Shown here piece after piece: positions 6,043 through 12,656 of a stretch of 64,000 nt of DNA. Each line of letters begins with the position of its first letter. Positions within the stretch are counted from its first letter, which is position 1. The notes under the pieces are model-generated. The model was given only the letters and a program-made list of their open reading frames with translations. It was not told the origin of the DNA and did not search any database. The DNA comes from Nitrospirota bacterium (GTDB lineage Bacteria; Nitrospirota; UBA9217): contig OY760142.1 in NCBI GenBank assembly GCA_963663225.1, forward strand, positions 512,001 to 576,000, given 5' to 3'. Made by a program: the position numbers and the translations under genes.

Positions 6043-6641
6043 TCAAATCCACACTATCTTTTCGAAATCCTGCATTCCTTCCACAATGTGATTTGTTGTG
6101 CCCCGATGGCCCACCTTCAATTCTGCTTCAAGATTGTAATGTTTCAGGCAGGTGCCGCACGAATAGATCTCTACCCCCATGGTTTCCATGTCCTTCAGCA
6201 CGCCGACGGTTTCATCATTCACGGTCGTCAGTTTCACGCCCGCATTTAGAAAAATCATCGTGTGCGGAAGCTGTTTATATATTTTCATGGTATCGAAAAA
6301 ACCTTTAAACAGCTTTTTGCCCAGGTCCTCGTCCTTGCCCATGCTGTCGGTCCCGATAATGAGCAGAAGAGATTTTTTTTTGTTTCCGGTTCCGCAATCT
6401 GCGCTCCGGCGTTTGATTTCGGTTGACAGGCATATCCTTTCACGATTCTGACCTTCCAGTCGCGGTCCTCCCGGTTGATCTCGGCAAAGAGCGCGTTCTG
6501 CGCAGCGTAGCCGGAAAGATTCATGGCGGATTCTTCATTGTCGACAATGACCTCGACAATCCCCTCTTTGATTGTGGACAGGGCCTCTTCCGCCATGAGT
6601 ACCGGCACGGGGCAGGCTTTCCCTCTTGCATCGATTTGCAT
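6043..6641 (-). pseudogene. yedF: YedF-type selenium metabolism protein (TusA plus DsrE), split by a frameshift at an A9 run
   Basis: N-half 'IDARGKACPVPV' (6285-6641) and C-half 'GKDEDLGKKL..MIFLNAGVKL..SCGTCLKHY' (6043-6342) are in different frames. Homopolymer at 6373-6381. Confidence 0.8.
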
Positions 6642-6649
6642 ACGTCTCC

Positions 6650-7426
6650 TTATTTTTCAACCGGCATTTTCGCTTCTTTCCAGTCGGCAAATTTTGTCTG
6701 CGCGATGAATGGATACGCAAGCTTGATCAGCTTCCGGTAGGCAGAATAACTGCTGCCGCCGGTATTGCAATAAACGATGATCTTTTTCTCTTTTGGCAAA
6801 ACATCCGAACGGGTCGCAAAAACATCCACGGGAATATTGAGAGCCCCGGGAATATGTCCATCTTTGTATTCTGACTCACCGCGCACGTCAACAATGATAA
6901 GATCTCGGGTCTTGCTGTCGATAAGCTTTTTGAGGTCAACAGGAGTTATAATCGCGGTTTCCACTTTTTTAGAATAATCCGGTCCCGGCACAATGTTCAG
7001 TCCCTTTTCTTCCCATACCGGAAAACCTTCATTATAGATATTGATATTTTTGTATCCGACCGAAGCAGCTTTGATCGCTGACTTTTTGCTCTTTCCGCAT
7101 TTCACACCATTGCAATAAAACACCAGCAGCTTCGTTTTGTCTGCCGGAAGCAGCGCGCGGGACTCTTCGAATTTGTTTTCGGGAATGCTGACGGCGCCGA
7201 TAATATGCGCCTCCTGATATTCCGTCGCTGTTCTCGCGTCGATCAGGAAAAAGTCCTTTTTTGCGTCAAGCATCGCCTTAAGCTGTGCCGTCGAAAGAAC
7301 CGGGAATTCCTGCTCTGCACCCGAAGCCTGAAACGCCGTTGAGATGCTGAGCGCGCACAGAAGCAGAATCATAATCATATTGGCAGCCATTTTCTTTTTG
7401 TGCATCGTGTCCTCCAAAACAGTCAT
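6650..7426 (-). CDS. Exported double rhodanese-domain protein
   Basis: Signal peptide; two 'D.R...EY...HI.GA..IP' domains with active-site loops 'YCNGVKC' and 'YCNTG'. Confidence 0.9.
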   Translation of the reverse strand: MTVLEDTMHKKKMAANMIMILLLCALSISTAFQASGAEQEFPVLSTAQLKAMLDAKKDFFLIDARTATEYQEAHIIGAVSIPENKFEESRALLPADKTKLLVFYCNGVKCGKSKKSAIKAASVGYKNINIYNEGFPVWEEKGLNIVPGPDYSKKVETAIITPVDLKKLIDSKTRDLIIVDVRGESEYKDGHIPGALNIPVDVFATRSDVLPKEKKIIVYCNTGGSSYSAYRKLIKLAYPFIAQTKFADWKEAKMPVEK

Positions 7427-7451
7427 GGTTATTTTGAATGAAAAAATCGTT

Positions 7452-8309
7452 TTAAAGCTTCATGCTTTCCGCAAGGGCCCGCGGAATCTGCTCGATAATC
7501 TCTGATACCTGGGTGGCCGGAGTGGGTTTTGCATGGAAGCCCGCGAGACGGTTTGTTTCCGCCGCTAGGACTGCTGCTGTGCCTGTTTCCATGCCTCCGG
7601 AAATCAGTGCGGCGACGATTCCGGTGACCGTATCACCGGTTCCTCCGATAGGCTCCAGTGTTTCCACAAGGGGTTCGTTTACCATTGCGAGAATGCCGTT
7701 CCGGGTCGCCACATAATCCGTCCTGCCCTTCACCAGAAGGCACCGTGAAGCGTTCTCATGGGCATACGCACGGGCAATAAGGTCGGGCACACAGTTGCCG
7801 TCATGCAGAATAAACCCCCGTGTGTAGAACGGATGCGGTGCCTCCTCATCGGCCAGAAAGGCGAGTTCTCCGGCGTCCGGAGTGAAAAGATCAAACACAG
7901 GTGCCTGGCCGCTCATCTTGGCCGCATACATAAAGCCGGCATCCGCTATAAGAAGGGGCTTGCGGGGCATGTCCTCCAGTGAAAATAAAATGCGATTGCA
8001 GTAATCCATGTCCGGCAAGATATAATGAAAGGCGACAGCGGTGAAGTCCGCCATCGGAATGTGTCGCAGCAGATGCTCGTACAGTTTCTTGCTGCCCTTC
8101 CCGATGCCGGTGTCGCCTGCCAGGAAGCAAAACGGCAACGGCAGACCGAGGGCTTCGATCGTTTTGACAGCTGCGGCCAGCAGGGCCGGCGTGCCACGGA
8201 GCACCGGGATGGCATTGCCTTCCACGGTGATGCGGCCGTCCCTCAGGACGACCGGTCCGGCAACAAGGGGAAAATTCTCATCAGGTATGGTGCCGGCTAT
8301 CGCAAGCAT
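7452..8309 (-). CDS. Ribokinase-fold / NAD(P)HX dehydratase-like kinase family protein
   Basis: 'ADAG', 'FTPD.GEL', 'LLVKG', 'IGGTGDTVTG'; this family is typical of yedE/yedF clusters. Confidence 0.8.
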   Translation of the reverse strand: MLAIAGTIPDENFPLVAGPVVLRDGRITVEGNAIPVLRGTPALLAAAVKTIEALGLPLPFCFLAGDTGIGKGSKKLYEHLLRHIPMADFTAVAFHYILPDMDYCNRILFSLEDMPRKPLLIADAGFMYAAKMSGQAPVFDLFTPDAGELAFLADEEAPHPFYTRGFILHDGNCVPDLIARAYAHENASRCLLVKGRTDYVATRNGILAMVNEPLVETLEPIGGTGDTVTGIVAALISGGMETGTAAVLAAETNRLAGFHAKPTPATQVSEIIEQIPRALAESMKL

Positions 8310-8854
8310 CGACGCTGCATCTCCTCATAAGCCAGTTGCAGCGCGTAGCCGCAGAGCGTGTGGCCTATTTCCCTTGGCGCCGGCGCGTCCGGCAGAGCCT
8401 GCCCAACCAGCTGCTGTGCGAGATAGGGGACATCCGGGCATCCCCCGCCCGAAATATTTACTATGAGAAGGGTTTCCTTTTCCACGGTCAGCTTCATGTT
8501 CGCTGCGCGGACCATGAGGTAGCGGCCAAAGTCTTTCACCTGAAAAAGATCGACCGGTTTGAGCAGCAGGCTGTGGACAGGAACAATCTGAAGCGGAGGG
8601 ATTTCCGCTTTTTTCAGAATACGGACGATATGCAGCTGCTCAATGAGAGGAAATTCAATAACAAGATCACAACCCGTGCGGAGTTCGGGTGGAGGCCCCA
8701 TGACCCGGATCTGCCAGCCGTCCGCCTTCAGTACGCTTTCGGCCCGGATAACCTCGCTGGTATTTTCAAAAACCAGAATTCCCAGGTCCGCGGCCGGAGC
8801 GCCGGCAGGTTCATTCTTTTTCTTTTTTAAAAAATCAAACGCCACGGCAATCAC
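8297..8854 (-). CDS. DUF3343 domain protein
   Basis: 'LVFENTSEVIRAE...PPPELRTGCDL...SGGGCPDVP...TLCGY'; GTG start overlaps the tusA stop (GTGA). Confidence 0.8.
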   Translation of the reverse strand: MIAVAFDFLKKKKNEPAGAPAADLGILVFENTSEVIRAESVLKADGWQIRVMGPPPELRTGCDLVIEFPLIEQLHIVRILKKAEIPPLQIVPVHSLLLKPVDLFQVKDFGRYLMVRAANMKLTVEKETLLIVNISGGGCPDVPYLAQQLVGQALPDAPAPREIGHTLCGYALQLAYEEMQRRCLR

Positions 8855-9069
8855 GCTTTTATAATGGCGATCTTGAATCCTCCGCCATCCGGTTGCATGT
8901 CCCGTACCTTCCATCCGAGTGTTTCCACTGCGCGGACCACGTTTTCCTTTGAGGTGTCCGTGTCGACAAGAATGGTAAACGCCTCCAGCGTTGTGTCGGT
9001 GAGCGCGTCGAGCGTGGCAAGAACCGGTTGGGGACAGGAAAGCCCGCGGGTATCGATCACATTGTTCAT
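8851..9069 (-). CDS. tusA: TusA/SirA family sulfur carrier
   Basis: MNNVIDTRGLSCPQPV (CPxP motif); start overlaps the yedE stop. Confidence 0.9.
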   Translation of the reverse strand: MNNVIDTRGLSCPQPVLATLDALTDTTLEAFTILVDTDTSKENVVRAVETLGWKVRDMQPDGGGFKIAIIKA

Positions 9070-10175
9070 GCAGCACCTCCGGAGGCGATTTTCTTTCTCA
9101 TGGTAAAACCGACAAGAAGGCAGAACAGAAGGCCGATAACAACGCCCGATATGCCGAAGGGTCCGATTCCTTTTGGAGAACTCGCGAGTCCAAAGTTGTG
9201 CGCGAAGGCCGCCCCGACCATCATCCCGACGACAAACACAGCGGCATCTCCGTCCCCTTCTCCTGATAAAAACAACTGGCGTCCAGGACATCCTCCTGCC
9301 AGTGTAAACGCGAGTCCGGCAAGCATCATGCCCAGGAAATTCCAAATGCTCATGGTATGGGCGACCGGCTGGTTTTCAAATCCCGGCTTGAATTGTCCAA
9401 GGGCCAGATTGACAACAAAGGCAGTCACGGCAAGGCCCGCGACGCCGTAAAACAGATGGGACTGCCGGAACAGGATCAAATCCCTGAACGCACCCATGGT
9501 GCAAAAACGGCTCCGCTGGGCCAGAAAACCGACCGCCAGCCCCGCGCCAAGCGACAGGAGGAGCGGCGCGTGCATGGCTCCCGGTCCCTTGACACTGTAA
9601 AAAAGAACAGTGTTTTTTTCCTGCCCCTCGATCTGGGGATACACCAGCATCAGCACAAGGAAGCCCATCATGATAAGGGGCATCATCCAGCCGACCGCGG
9701 TATGAGTCGATTGCGATCTGTTCAAACTGTATCCGGCTTTCAAAAACCGCGTGCCGATCCAGATGCCGGCTACAAGACCGAGCAGGCCAAAGATTGCATT
9801 CGCATCACCTCCGGTCAACCGCAGCACTGCGCGCCAGGGACATCCCAAAAAAACCAGGGCACCGATCATCGCGAAAACCCCCAGCAGAAACCGCACGATG
9901 GGATCCGAACCGGCCCGGGGACGAAACTCTTTAAAGCTGTATGCGGCAACCATGGCCCCCAACACAAACCCGATAAGTTCAGGCCGCATGTACTGAACGA
10001 TGTCCGCGCGATGCAACCCCAAAGACCCGGCAATGTCGCGCTCAAAGCAGGCAACACAAATACCCATGTTTCCCGGGTTCCCAAAATACTGCAGCAACGG
10101 TGCAAATAAGCCGATACACGCACCGACGCCGATGATTCCCCATTTTGTCGCAAAAAAATTCTTCAAAACAGCCAT
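9066..10175 (-). CDS. yedE: YedE/YeeE family putative selenium/thiosulfate transporter
   Basis: 'GNPGNMGICVACFERD', 'FLGCPWR', 'QRSRFC', 'GGCPGRQ'; multiple TM helices. Confidence 0.93.
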   Translation of the reverse strand: MAVLKNFFATKWGIIGVGACIGLFAPLLQYFGNPGNMGICVACFERDIAGSLGLHRADIVQYMRPELIGFVLGAMVAAYSFKEFRPRAGSDPIVRFLLGVFAMIGALVFLGCPWRAVLRLTGGDANAIFGLLGLVAGIWIGTRFLKAGYSLNRSQSTHTAVGWMMPLIMMGFLVLMLVYPQIEGQEKNTVLFYSVKGPGAMHAPLLLSLGAGLAVGFLAQRSRFCTMGAFRDLILFRQSHLFYGVAGLAVTAFVVNLALGQFKPGFENQPVAHTMSIWNFLGMMLAGLAFTLAGGCPGRQLFLSGEGDGDAAVFVVGMMVGAAFAHNFGLASSPKGIGPFGISGVVIGLLFCLLVGFTMRKKIASGGAA

Positions 10176-10303
10176 GTCATCTCCTTCACTGTATTTGCTT
10201 GTTTATTGACCGGGATAAAACATGCAGCGATAACGTAATTGATATTCTCGGAACAGGATGGAGCATCAGCAACACCGCAGCAATTATTCTGTATTTCTGC
10301 GTC

Positions 10304-10449
10304 TGGAGAGAGGAAGTGGGAATCGAACCCACCACGGTTCTCAGATGCATTCCGGCGTAAATATCCGGCAGATATCTCCGCCCGACTGTTGCATCGAACC
10401 GTGATTCTGGTTTTGCAGACCAGGAGGGGCGCCAGCCCCATTACCCCTC
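10304..10449 (-). tRNA. tRNA-Sec-like tRNA with Cys anticodon GCA and a 74-nt variable region (selC*-like)
   Basis: 5' GAGGGGTA; D-arm GGGGC-TGGC-GCCCC; anticodon arm CTGGT-CTGCAAA-ACCAG; long structured variable arm; T-arm GTGGG-TTCGATT-CCCAC; 3' TTCCTCTC-T-CCA. Confidence 0.85.
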
Positions 10450-10459
10450 ACGGCTATTG

Positions 10460-11512
10460 TTACTGCGTAACGAATATTTTACCGGGTTCCCCGGCAACGA
10501 CCTCACCGATCACTGCCCTGGTCTCGACACCCCGTACAGCGAGGCCGGAAAGAAGTGAATCGAGTTTGTCAGCGGCAACAGCGATCAGAAGTCCTCCGGA
10601 GGTCTGTGCATCTGCGAGAATCAGCTTATCAGTTTCAGCTATTTTTTTATCCCAAACAACCTTCTCGTCCACATACCGCAGGTTTGTACGGGAGCCGCCG
10701 GGAATCCACAAGCGTGCTAGATCCCCTACCCCGTCGAAAACCGGGACCTTTGAAAGTGAAAGTCGTGCACTGACACAACTGCGATGCAGCATCTCATGCA
10801 AATGACCGAGCAAACCGAATCCGGTGATGTCCGTCGCCCCTTTTACGCCTACATCCACCATGGCTTCAGACGCCGGTCTGTTCAGTGTCTTCATGCTCTT
10901 TGTTGCTGTTTCAATCAATGAGTTTGCTGCTTTGCCCACTTTAATTGCCGTGGAAATAATGCCGATACCGAGCGGCTTGGTCAGCACGAGTAAATCACCC
11001 GCGCAGGCGCCGCCCTTCAAAACAACCTTGTCAGGATGCACAATGCCGGTCACCGCCATACCGTACTTCGGCTCTTTGTCATCAATGGAGTGGCCGCCGA
11101 TGATGCTCACCCCGGCTTCCTGCGCCTTTTCAGCGCCGCCCCGCATGATTTTGCCGAGGACATCAAGGGACGCATCCTTCGGGAAGGCAACAAGGTTCAG
11201 CGCGGTAAGCGGTTTGGCTCCCATGGCGTAAATATCGCTCAGTGCGTTCGCCGCTGCGATGGCCCCGAAATCATAGGGGTCGTCGACAATCGGGGTAAAA
11301 AAATCCACGGTCTGAACCATGGCGATTTCATCGCTCAGCTTATAAACGCCGGCGTCGTCCTCTATGCCGGTAAGGACACGGGGGTCCGTGATCGCGGGAA
11401 GCGTCTGCAGAATCCGGTCCAACAACGTTGGACCCAGTTTGCAGGCTCAGCCCGCGCCATGGCTCAAGGCCGTCAGTTTCATCTGGCCGGAAAGGTCTTT
11501 CTCTTCAGCCAC
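10460..11512 (-). CDS. selD: Selenophosphate synthetase with in-frame UGA (Sec) at the active site
   Basis: GTG start at 11512 with RBS GAGGAGGA gives ...MKLTALSHGAG-TGA(11447-11449)-ACKLGP...; also 'EDDAGVY', 'QTVDFFTPIVDDPY', 'DAQTSGGLL'. Confidence 0.95.
11416..11434 (-). promoter_or_regulatory. Bacterial SECIS-like hairpin
   Basis: GGTCCAAC-GTT-GTTGGACC perfect stem with G in the loop, 12 nt 3' of the selD UGA. Confidence 0.75.
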
Positions 11513-11714: not shown

Positions 11715-12656
11715 TTATTTGATAATCAGCCTGGGTTCTTCGATAAATACCTTTGAACCGGGAGGGACTGAATGCGTGATCCAGACATTGCCGCCGATTA
11801 CCGAACCTGCGCCAATCACAGTATCTCCGCCCAATACGGTCACTCCGGAATACAGAATGACATCACGCTCAATGGTCGGATGGCGTTTTTCCGTCCTGAG
11901 CTGCTCGACTTCCGTCTTGGGAACAGACAGGGCCCCCAGGGTGACCCCTTGATAGATTCGGACATGATCGCCTATTACTGTGGTTTCCCCGATGACGACG
12001 CCCGTGCCATGGTCGATAAAGAAGCTTTCCCCGATCCGCGCCCCGGGGTGGATGTCGATGCCGGTCACACTGTGGGCGTATTCTGACATGATCCGCGGCA
12101 CCAGAGGCACATTCTGCCTGTACAACTGATGGGCCATCCGCTGCACAGCGACCGCAAAGAGTCCGGGATAGCTGAAAATAATTTCATCATAACTCTTGGC
12201 TGCCGGATCGCCGTCATGGGCTGCGCGTATATCATCGGCAAGAAGCATCTTGATCCGGGGAAGCTCCTTCATAAAATTGATCACAATTTCTTTTGCCTGC
12301 TCCTCGCAGGTAAAGCAGGTCATGCCCCGTCTGCGGCATTCATGGCGCAGCGCGAATGCCACCTGCTGAGACAGCGCTTCATAGAACGCAGTGGCCTCCT
12401 GGCCGTAATAATAGATGAGATTGACCTTGTCAATGCGTATGCGCGAGAAGTATCCCGGGAACAGCAGCCGGCACGCCATCTGAATGATCTCAATAATCGA
12501 CTCCTTGGAAGGCAGCGGCTCTAGATCCACGTGGTTGAAACAGGTGTCTCCGTCGCAGGTGCGCACGAGCTGTTCAACAATACCCGGGATCTCATTCCGG
12601 TATTCCTTGATTTTTTTCCTGTTACTGTCGCATTGATCAGACGTCCGCTTGTCCAT
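11715..12656 (-). CDS. cysE: Serine O-acetyltransferase
   Basis: 'GDPAAKSYDEIIFSYPG', 'GIDIHPGA.IG..FFIDHGTGVVIGET', 'KRHPTI'. Confidence 0.95.
   Translation of the reverse strand: MDKRTSDQCDSNRKKIKEYRNEIPGIVEQLVRTCDGDTCFNHVDLEPLPSKESIIEIIQMACRLLFPGYFSRIRIDKVNLIYYYGQEATAFYEALSQQVAFALRHECRRRGMTCFTCEEQAKEIVINFMKELPRIKMLLADDIRAAHDGDPAAKSYDEIIFSYPGLFAVAVQRMAHQLYRQNVPLVPRIMSEYAHSVTGIDIHPGARIGESFFIDHGTGVVIGETTVIGDHVRIYQGVTLGALSVPKTEVEQLRTEKRHPTIERDVILYSGVTVLGGDTVIGAGSVIGGNVWITHSVPPGSKVFIEEPRLIIK

Follow-up and report, generated by a model that had tools for sequence, protein, structure and literature searches.

Transfer RNAs that resemble tRNA for selenocysteine (Sec) in shape and tRNA-Cys in identity, termed selC* or tRNAReC, are the closest described relatives of the gene considered here. 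As described in the main text of PMC5389517, the class is marked by U73 as discriminator together with GCA or UCA as anticodon, is found in anaerobes, Nitrospirae among them, and always stands beside a full Sec apparatus; a cysteinylated member of the UCA type recoded the UGA codon of selD in E. coli. The same operational definition (U73 with GCA or UCA) appears in passages of PMC13582414, which report that both types recode UGA codons flanked by a selenocysteine insertion sequence (SECIS). The DNA analysed in this study was a stretch of 64,000 nt from a Nitrospirota bacterium (contig OY760142.1, positions 512,001 to 576,000), hereafter called the window. It contains, at 10304..10449 on the minus strand, a 146-nt gene for a Sec-like tRNA-Cys with an encoded CCA end and a variable region of 74 nt, located directly behind the selenoprotein gene selD. 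We consider it probable that this gene encodes a functional tRNA which is charged by cysteinyl-tRNA synthetase (CysRS), delivered by SelB and used to insert Cys at SECIS-flanked UGA codons, and that its giant arm is a lineage-specific expansion.

The tRNA gene and its class

The gene was identified from the sequence, with Rfam model RF01852 (tRNA-Sec) and with a family-specific model (R1). Its 5' acceptor strand GAGGGGUA (10449-10442) pairs with UUCCUCUC (10315-10308) over eight positions, including one G-U pair and one U-U mismatch, and an AU linker read from the sequence joins it to the D-arm (10439-10426; sequence and fold), which has a 5-bp stem (GGGGC/GCCCC) and a 4-nt loop (UGGC). The anticodon arm CUGGU-CUGCAAA-ACCAG (10423-10407) carries the anticodon GCA at 10416-10414. 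The T-arm GUGGG-UUCGAUU-CCCAC (10332-10316) has a stem of 5 bp, giving an 8/5 arrangement with a 13-bp acceptor/T domain, and is followed, after the acceptor strand, by the discriminator U73 (10307) and the encoded CCA (10306-10304), both read from the sequence. An earlier note on this DNA had described a Sec-shaped cloverleaf of 146 nt with GCA, U73 and CCA, 10 nt after selD; all of these elements are present on the minus strand, and the two major Cys identity elements that it placed on a Sec-shaped body, GCA and U73, were read directly.

In a scan of the window, RF01852 matched 10308-10451 end to end (model positions 1-91) with 48.9 bits (cut-off 47, E 8e-7). The Rfam alignment begins 2 nt before G10449, which is position +1 in the register used in the earlier note and common to all relatives (start GAGGG). 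The large insert accounts for the low Rfam score; model R1 gave 86.4 bits (E 6.5e-18). ARAGORN reported only a tRNA-Met in the window and did not call the 146-nt gene. The expectation that standard tRNA finders would miss the gene held for ARAGORN; the Rfam tRNA-Sec model detected it.

The whole 146-nt RNA was predicted to fold into a cloverleaf at -67.6 kcal/mol (z-score -4.4), a value equalled by none of 200 shuffled sequences. Among 29 short relatives, 93% of the cells of the 8/5 cloverleaf are paired, and 16 of its 28 pairs show changes on both sides, a number reached in 0/500 shuffles. Both sides have changed in seven of the eight acceptor pairs and in three of the five D-stem pairs, and the T-stem is paired in 100% of cells. 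U73 and CCA are present in 44 of 46 unique sequences among the matches listed by the script; these 46 include L107 (G73, no CCA), which is not a tRNAReC.

On its sequence, 10304-10449 is a member of the published tRNAReC/selC* class of tRNA-Cys, since it combines a Sec-like cloverleaf and the Cys identity set GCA and U73 with a full Sec apparatus in the same genome. The selC* class had already been named in the earlier note, in agreement with the definition in the main text of PMC5389517. With the tRNAReC/selC* genes of Mukai et al. (2017) the gene shares the tRNA-Sec-like body, U73, GCA and the coexisting selA, selB, selC and selD; it differs from the published genes in its place directly behind selD. 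Its short tRNAReC relatives measure ~93-100 nt, compared with 146 nt here, and have variable regions of ~24-27 nt, compared with 74 nt, whereas the deltaproteobacterial selC* genes described in the main text of PMC5389517 have an 8/4 arrangement with a bulge instead of 8/5. Canonical tRNA-Sec has the 8-bp acceptor stem, the 5-bp T-stem, the 4-nt D-loop and a long variable arm in common with the gene but carries UCA instead of GCA, G73 instead of U73 and a D-stem of 6 bp instead of 5 bp; identity as a canonical tRNA-Sec was ruled out by the GCA anticodon and the U discriminator. GCA and U73, the two major CysRS identity elements, are shared with canonical tRNA-Cys, a 7/5 class I tRNA with a 4-5-nt variable loop, which was ruled out by the 8/5 arrangement and the 74-nt variable region. 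Allo-tRNAs (Mukai et al. 2017), which came to light as false positives in searches for tRNA-Sec and have varied anticodons, resemble the gene in their Sec-like look and long variable arm. They were ruled out as well, because their acceptor/T domain has 12 bp (8/4 or 9/3), compared with 13 bp (8/5) and Cys identity in the present gene.

A separate observation was made in Desulfobacterales/deltaproteobacterial selC* genes of the UCA type with U73, whose variable arm contains the hairpin CCCGGUCUGCAAAACCGGG, a full copy of the GCA anticodon stem-loop of tRNA-Cys. The hairpin matches the anticodon arm of Nitrospirota tRNAReC genes letter for letter. It occurs in L051 (5577-5664), L052 (6005-6093), L130 (4737-4824) and L150 (3478-3565), and also in L064, L082, L084, L090 and L156; a GCA-arm copy in the UCA-type variable arm goes unmentioned in the main text of PMC5389517. 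The hairpin may offer CysRS a second point of recognition, or may be left over from the origin of the UCA type, and these arms hint that the variable arm of the tRNAReC class carries recognition elements.

Selenocysteine and cysteine machinery

The earlier note had suggested a genome search for canonical selC, selA and selB, which recovered all three. The canonical tRNA-Sec gene (selC; UCA, G73, 62.8 bits) is located at C1:3214210-3214304 and a canonical tRNA-Cys(GCA) gene, 76 nt long and of the 7/5 class I type, at C1:2599543-2599618. The selA gene (597.1 bits) adjoins a single selB (375.9 bits), and there is one cysS (563.5 bits); no second selB (selB*) or second cysS exceeded the family cut-offs in the genome. 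The tRNAReC gene is therefore an extra tRNA beside canonical tRNA-Cys and tRNA-Sec, in a genome with the full Sec apparatus of selA, selB, selC and a UGA-containing selD. Clostridial-type tRNAReCs are reported to use the ordinary SelB and CysRS where selB* and cysS* are lacking.

The giant variable arm

The 74-nt variable region (10406-10333, minus strand) was predicted to form a long irregular hairpin of ~27 pairs with small internal loops (-34.5 kcal/mol, z -6.0). At its base, the 5' strand CACGGUUC (10396-10403) pairs with GAACCGUG (10333-10340) over 8 bp, and its tip is formed by the block AUAUCUGCCGGAUAUUU (10359..10375), with the conserved hairpin AGAUAUC-UGCCG-GAUAUUU. Comparisons were made between the genome of the window (G000), two sister species (G004 and G002), a further member of the genus (G003) and X5, a contig from another study. 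The base stem is invariant in G000, G004, G002 and X5, and 7/8 of its pairs are kept in the metagenome contigs L159 and L163, which also carry homologous giant arms; in these more distant arms, base stem and length are kept and the interior is different. The tip block is identical in X5, and the tip helix shows a few substitutions that preserve pairing. In three species, the arm folds far beyond shuffled sequences (z -6.0, -4.9 and -4.8). Two internal helices proposed in the earlier note did not withstand the comparison: the cap hairpin GGCGGA-GAUA-UCUGCC is not kept in G002, and the helix GAUGCA/UGCAUC has one mismatch in G004 and two in X5 and is absent in G002.

When the 74-nt arm was compared with the 3.26-Mb genome, only the self-match was obtained (next best E 0.2), and an origin from a repeat or mobile element was ruled out, as there is no second genomic copy. 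A permissive Rfam scan of 10200-10560 returned tRNA-Sec only, plus two chance-level hits (E 5.8 and 7.1). A self-splicing intron or other described RNA domain in the arm was rejected on this basis, there being no match to a curated family.

Relatives and arm length

Giant-arm genes of 146-148 nt were found in the separate assemblies of G004 (98% identical) and G002 (87%). The X5 contig is ~94% identical over 601 nt, with no insertion or deletion in the tRNA, and retains the GCA anticodon and U73. An assembly chimera or a sequencing error, such as a misread TCA anticodon or a spurious insert, has nothing in its favour and is exceedingly improbable: X5, from a different study, shows GCA, U73 and an arm of equal length, and homologous giant arms are present in G004, G002, L159 and L163. 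Logan contigs of two runs (X1 and X3) are also identical to the locus, although they derive from one sample, possibly the source of the assembly. The concern voiced in the earlier note about a chimera or a misread TCA was accordingly not confirmed.

G003 contains a 97-nt version of the gene with a 27-nt arm, compared with 74-76 nt in G000, G004 and G002. The arm therefore grows and shrinks on a short time scale, within one genus. Exact-pattern scans of one genome per species, complemented by a metagenome scan, yielded many tRNAReC genes, mostly from Nitrospirota and Thermodesulfovibrionales assemblies. Arm lengths were surveyed in at least 120 stretches with a required exact match to the anticodon arm, a condition under which more divergent genes such as that of X5 go unnoticed. 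The T-loop pattern excluded at least eight genes with short arms (L039, L041, L045, L063, L088, L094, L101 and L140), and L104 was left out because it is clipped at the edge of the locus. A variable region of 24-27 nt was found in at least 30 unique sequences, with longer ones of 33 nt (at least one sequence), 47-52 nt (at least six), 59-60 nt (at least two), 69-76 nt (at least five), 82 nt (at least one) and 89 nt (at least one, in a gene of 161 nt). When an unbiased sample of genomes was searched with model R1, tRNAReC was detected in 7/64 genomes of the family, where the weaker hits were canonical tRNA-Sec, and in 16/151 genomes of a phylum sample, 7 of these 16 genes being 119-146 nt long. 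Expanded arms of 33-89 nt recur among the tRNAReC genes of this phylum, and the impression given in the earlier note of a one-off arm was overstated.

The mid-size arms (47-60 nt; L161, L152, L151, L113, L160, L164, L115 and L040; alignment A3) have a common two-hairpin layout, in which a base stem of 6 bp, one of them covarying, leads to a junction rich in A (AAAG); of the two hairpins, the first is variable and the second is small, its loop of 7 nt reading, for example, CUUAGAA or UCAUAAG. They look like a distinct, conserved type of branched variable arm. Three further loci stood out in the survey. L049 carries two tRNAReC-like genes, one of normal size, 96 nt with CCA (1541-1636), and one of 153 nt (6175-6327) in which the arm measures 82 nt and CCA is not encoded. 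In L151, a gene of 123 nt is accompanied by another copy, the 5' acceptor half of which does not pair. The gene at L167 1501-1597 (G082) has the anticodon loop CCGCAAA, with C33 in place of the near-universal U33.

Substitution pattern

Four-fold degenerate sites of selD served as the neutral yardstick in comparisons of G000 with G002 (43/177 changed, 24%) and with G004 (27/186, 15%). The 72 positions of the tRNA core show two changes relative to G002 (2/72; binomial 6e-7) and none relative to G004 (0/72); this slow core in giant-arm sister species shows that selection has been at work since the expansion. Within the arm, the base, consisting of three unpaired nt and the 8-bp stem, is unchanged relative to G002 (0/19), as is the 17-nt tip block (0/17), a segment chosen post hoc. 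The remaining interior, in contrast, differs at 17/38 positions and by a 2-nt indel. Relative to G004, the whole arm shows 3/74 changes. We read this pattern, which rests on five sequences, as that of a functional RNA, with purifying selection on the base and tip of the arm and a free middle.

These rates bear on the possibility that the gene is a decaying duplicate of selC or of a tRNA-Cys gene, disabled by an insertion into the variable arm. Such a history would agree with the U-U mismatch in the acceptor stem, with X5, where four core positions have changed and one change turns the A8:U pair into an A-C mismatch, with the Rfam score barely above the cut-off and with the degenerate-looking second copies in relatives (L049 without CCA, L151 with a poor 5' half). 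It is nonetheless very unlikely, given a core that changed at 2/72 and 0/72 positions in two giant-arm sister species while 24% and 15% of four-fold sites did so; moreover, the family-specific model scores 86 bits, and the large insert explains the low Rfam score. The earlier note had argued against decay from the two concordant Cys determinants, and the comparison of core and four-fold sites in G002 leads to the same conclusion.

The arm could alternatively be an intervening sequence that an enzyme such as RNase III cleaves in the transcript, leaving either a nicked or two-piece tRNA, its parts joined by the base stem of the arm, or a tRNA with a shortened arm. In some bacterial 23S rRNAs, intervening sequences are removed by RNase III. 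A stable hairpin of ~27 pairs (z -6.0) would in principle be long enough for a duplex-specific RNase, and an invariant base stem below a middle that outpaces the four-fold sites (17/38 compared with 24%) fits a spacer whose sequence is indifferent, as does a length that differs widely among close relatives, from 27 nt in G003 to 74-76 nt. We regard cleavage as unlikely all the same, because conservation of the tip (0/17) is unexpected for a discarded piece and the arm matches no intron or other RNA family; we also know of no bacterial tRNA of this kind.

Genomic context

The selD gene (selenide, water dikinase; 10460..11482, minus strand; TIGR00476, 377.8 bits) is a selenoprotein gene with an in-frame TGA at 11447-11449, within the motif HGAGUACK when TGA is translated as U. 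Its stop codon (10462-10460) leaves a 10-nt spacer to the tRNAReC gene. A putative SECIS was predicted to start at the UGA, as a hairpin (11399..11448, minus strand; -25.1 kcal/mol, z only -1.7) whose apical stem of 8 bp ends in the loop GUU. The tip of the giant arm was also considered as a mimic of a SECIS, an idea that was dropped because its UGCCG (or GCC) loop is unlike the apical stem and loop of the selD hairpin.

Downstream of the tRNA, after 128 nt, lies a gene for a YedE-family putative selenium transporter (9066..10175; TIGR04112, 494.9 bits), followed by genes for a 259-aa protein with a Se/S-carrier domain (8297-9076; PF11823 at residues 100-165 only, no NCBIfam match), a protein resembling NAD(P)H-hydrate dehydratase (7452-8309) and a two-domain rhodanese (6650-7426), this part of the cluster being assigned from Pfam and NCBIfam hits and the spacing of open reading frames. 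All genes in 6650..10175 are on the minus strand, like the tRNAReC gene, and are separated by short gaps or overlap. The gene immediately upstream of selD, also on the minus strand, encodes a serine O-acetyltransferase (cysE-like; 11715-12656) and reached 160 bits with TIGR01172, below the cut-off of 210.65, and 154 bits with NF041874, above the cut-off of 150. A cysteine-synthesis gene of the cysE type thus heads the selenium cluster.

No promoter-like site was found between selD and tRNAReC or between tRNAReC and yedE, so co-transcription of the three genes is likely. Between selD and tRNAReC there is also no convincing terminator-like site; a terminator-like hairpin at 10497-10479 was not taken for a terminator, as it lies within the coding end of selD and has a weak T-run.

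Across the giant-arm clade, tRNAReC is located 12-15 nt after selD. The distance is 142 nt in another genus (G078), so the linkage of the two genes occurs in two genera, and in G003 it is 1.1 kb, with a transglutaminase-like gene in between. The order selD, tRNAReC, SLT transglycosylase and tRNA-Met is common to G000 and G003. Outside the phylum, a Chloroflexota assembly (L120, 2979-3073) has a short tRNAReC just after a trio of yedE, Se/S-carrier and dehydratase-like genes, which are homologous to those in the window (43-55% identity); the link between tRNAReC and this cluster therefore recurs beyond the phylum.

In the family, selD was matched in 57/64 genomes, with the TGA in every match that covers the N-terminus; the three matches without it are N-terminally truncated, starting at query residue 89 or later. 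Several family genomes (G079, G087, G031, G035, G011 and G073) have two Sec-type selD copies. As UGA-containing selD is nearly universal and tRNAReC is present in 7/64 genomes, tRNAReC is accessory and not required for a Sec-type selD.

Its setting suggests another possibility, namely that the gene is not used in translation but belongs to the operon RNA of selD and yedE as a tRNA-like element, serving as a processing or stability signal between the two or as a sensor that binds a protein of the selenium cluster through the arm tip. The tight same-strand selenium cluster, in which the gene is 10 nt from selD and 128 nt from yedE, the conserved tip and base of the arm and the patchy occurrence of tRNAReC (7/64 family genomes), as for an accessory regulator, would suit such a role. 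It is decidedly unlikely, however, as all elements required for aminoacylation and use on the ribosome (CCA, U73, the anticodon GCA within a loop of 7 nt, an undamaged T-loop) are kept in 44/46 unique sequences among the matches listed and most relatives are not beside these selenium genes. Members of the class furthermore act as tRNAs in E. coli, according to the main text of PMC5389517.

Discussion

The steps of the favoured explanation, from charging to recoding, as well as co-transcription and the intactness of the arm, are reasoned from the anatomy of the gene and from published members of the class. The tRNA would be co-transcribed with the UGA-containing selD, 10 nt upstream, and excised by the normal tRNA-processing enzymes. 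The single CysRS would then charge it with cysteine by virtue of GCA and U73, and the 13-bp acceptor/T domain would steer the resulting Cys-tRNA to SelB rather than EF-Tu. SelB would deliver it to SECIS-flanked UGA codons, including that of selD itself. Insertion of Cys at times when Sec-tRNA-Sec is short would yield an active Cys-SelD before any selenophosphate is available. A supply of Cys at the selD UGA, as envisaged in the earlier note, is plausible in this setting.

The 74-nt region would correspond to the usual arm of ~25 nt, enlarged about threefold in this lineage in the manner of an rRNA expansion segment, and would point away from the elements on which CysRS, SelB and the ribosome depend. 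We favour the view that the expansion is tolerated and under partial constraint. The expansion segments and bacterial intervening sequences of rRNA provide the analogy: a peripheral helix with a conserved base, a fast interior and a changing size. Both are known for rRNA and not for the variable arm of a tRNA.

Several points weigh against the favoured explanation. A rod of ~30 bp on the variable arm is, to our knowledge, without precedent in a translating tRNA, and an arm of this size might collide with the ribosome. tRNA-Sec, at 90-101 nt, is termed the longest tRNA in the main text of PMC5330540. The U-U mismatch in the acceptor stem and the A-C mismatch of X5, mentioned above in connection with decay, also count here, as does the overall divergence of X5, which has changed at 9/146 tRNA sites (4 core, 5 arm), about the rate of the flanks. 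The boundaries of the tip block were set after the alignment had been seen, which makes its significance optimistic, and the tip sequence is not common to the next relatives, L159 and L163. No RNA run was found to contain the locus, and four runs guessed to be RNA matched only 3-7% of its words. Nearly all relatives in the family have a UGA-containing selD and no tRNAReC, so that a bootstrap of selD is not a necessity; as a necessity, the bootstrap is weakened, not rejected. Beyond the family, most tRNAReC loci have none of the five neighbouring selenium genes in the flanking block.

A bolder proposal goes beyond a tolerated expansion: an intact 146-nt RNA might be made and work on the ribosome, with the giant arm as a functional module whose tip docks a partner. 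In that case, the invariant base stem would set the direction of the arm, and the tip (AUAUC-UGCCG-GAUAU) would dock the partner. Conceivable partners are a protein encoded in the adjoining selenium cluster and SelB, seryl-tRNA synthetase or SelA, any of these three being bound or excluded. When Cys is inserted at UGA in place of Sec would then depend on docking. We consider this proposal doubtful. For the delivery of Cys-tRNA to a TusA/rhodanese relay or for an appended regulatory domain, both raised in the earlier note, we found nothing in support beyond the conservation of the tip.

No description of variable arms of this size was found in literature searches or in passages of PMC5389517, PMC7609411, PMC5330540 and PMC8124441, although expanded Nitrospirae arms may have been depicted before. 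Few features in biology are as constrained as the size and shape of tRNAs, since all tRNAs share the processing enzymes, elongation factors and the ribosome. If the RNA is whole and active on the ribosome, it would be the longest translating tRNA known, together with its relatives of 148-161 nt. The SelB-dependent route may then accept far larger tRNAs than is usually assumed; otherwise, the arms may be removed or newly used. Either outcome would be informative for tRNA biology and for the engineering of orthogonal tRNAs. As the class has been published and its core mechanism shown in other species, the locus extends a known system and does not establish a new one. Its place behind a UGA-containing selD offers a concrete setting for the proposed backup role of tRNAReC, in which a Cys-containing SelD would be made without a selenium donor.

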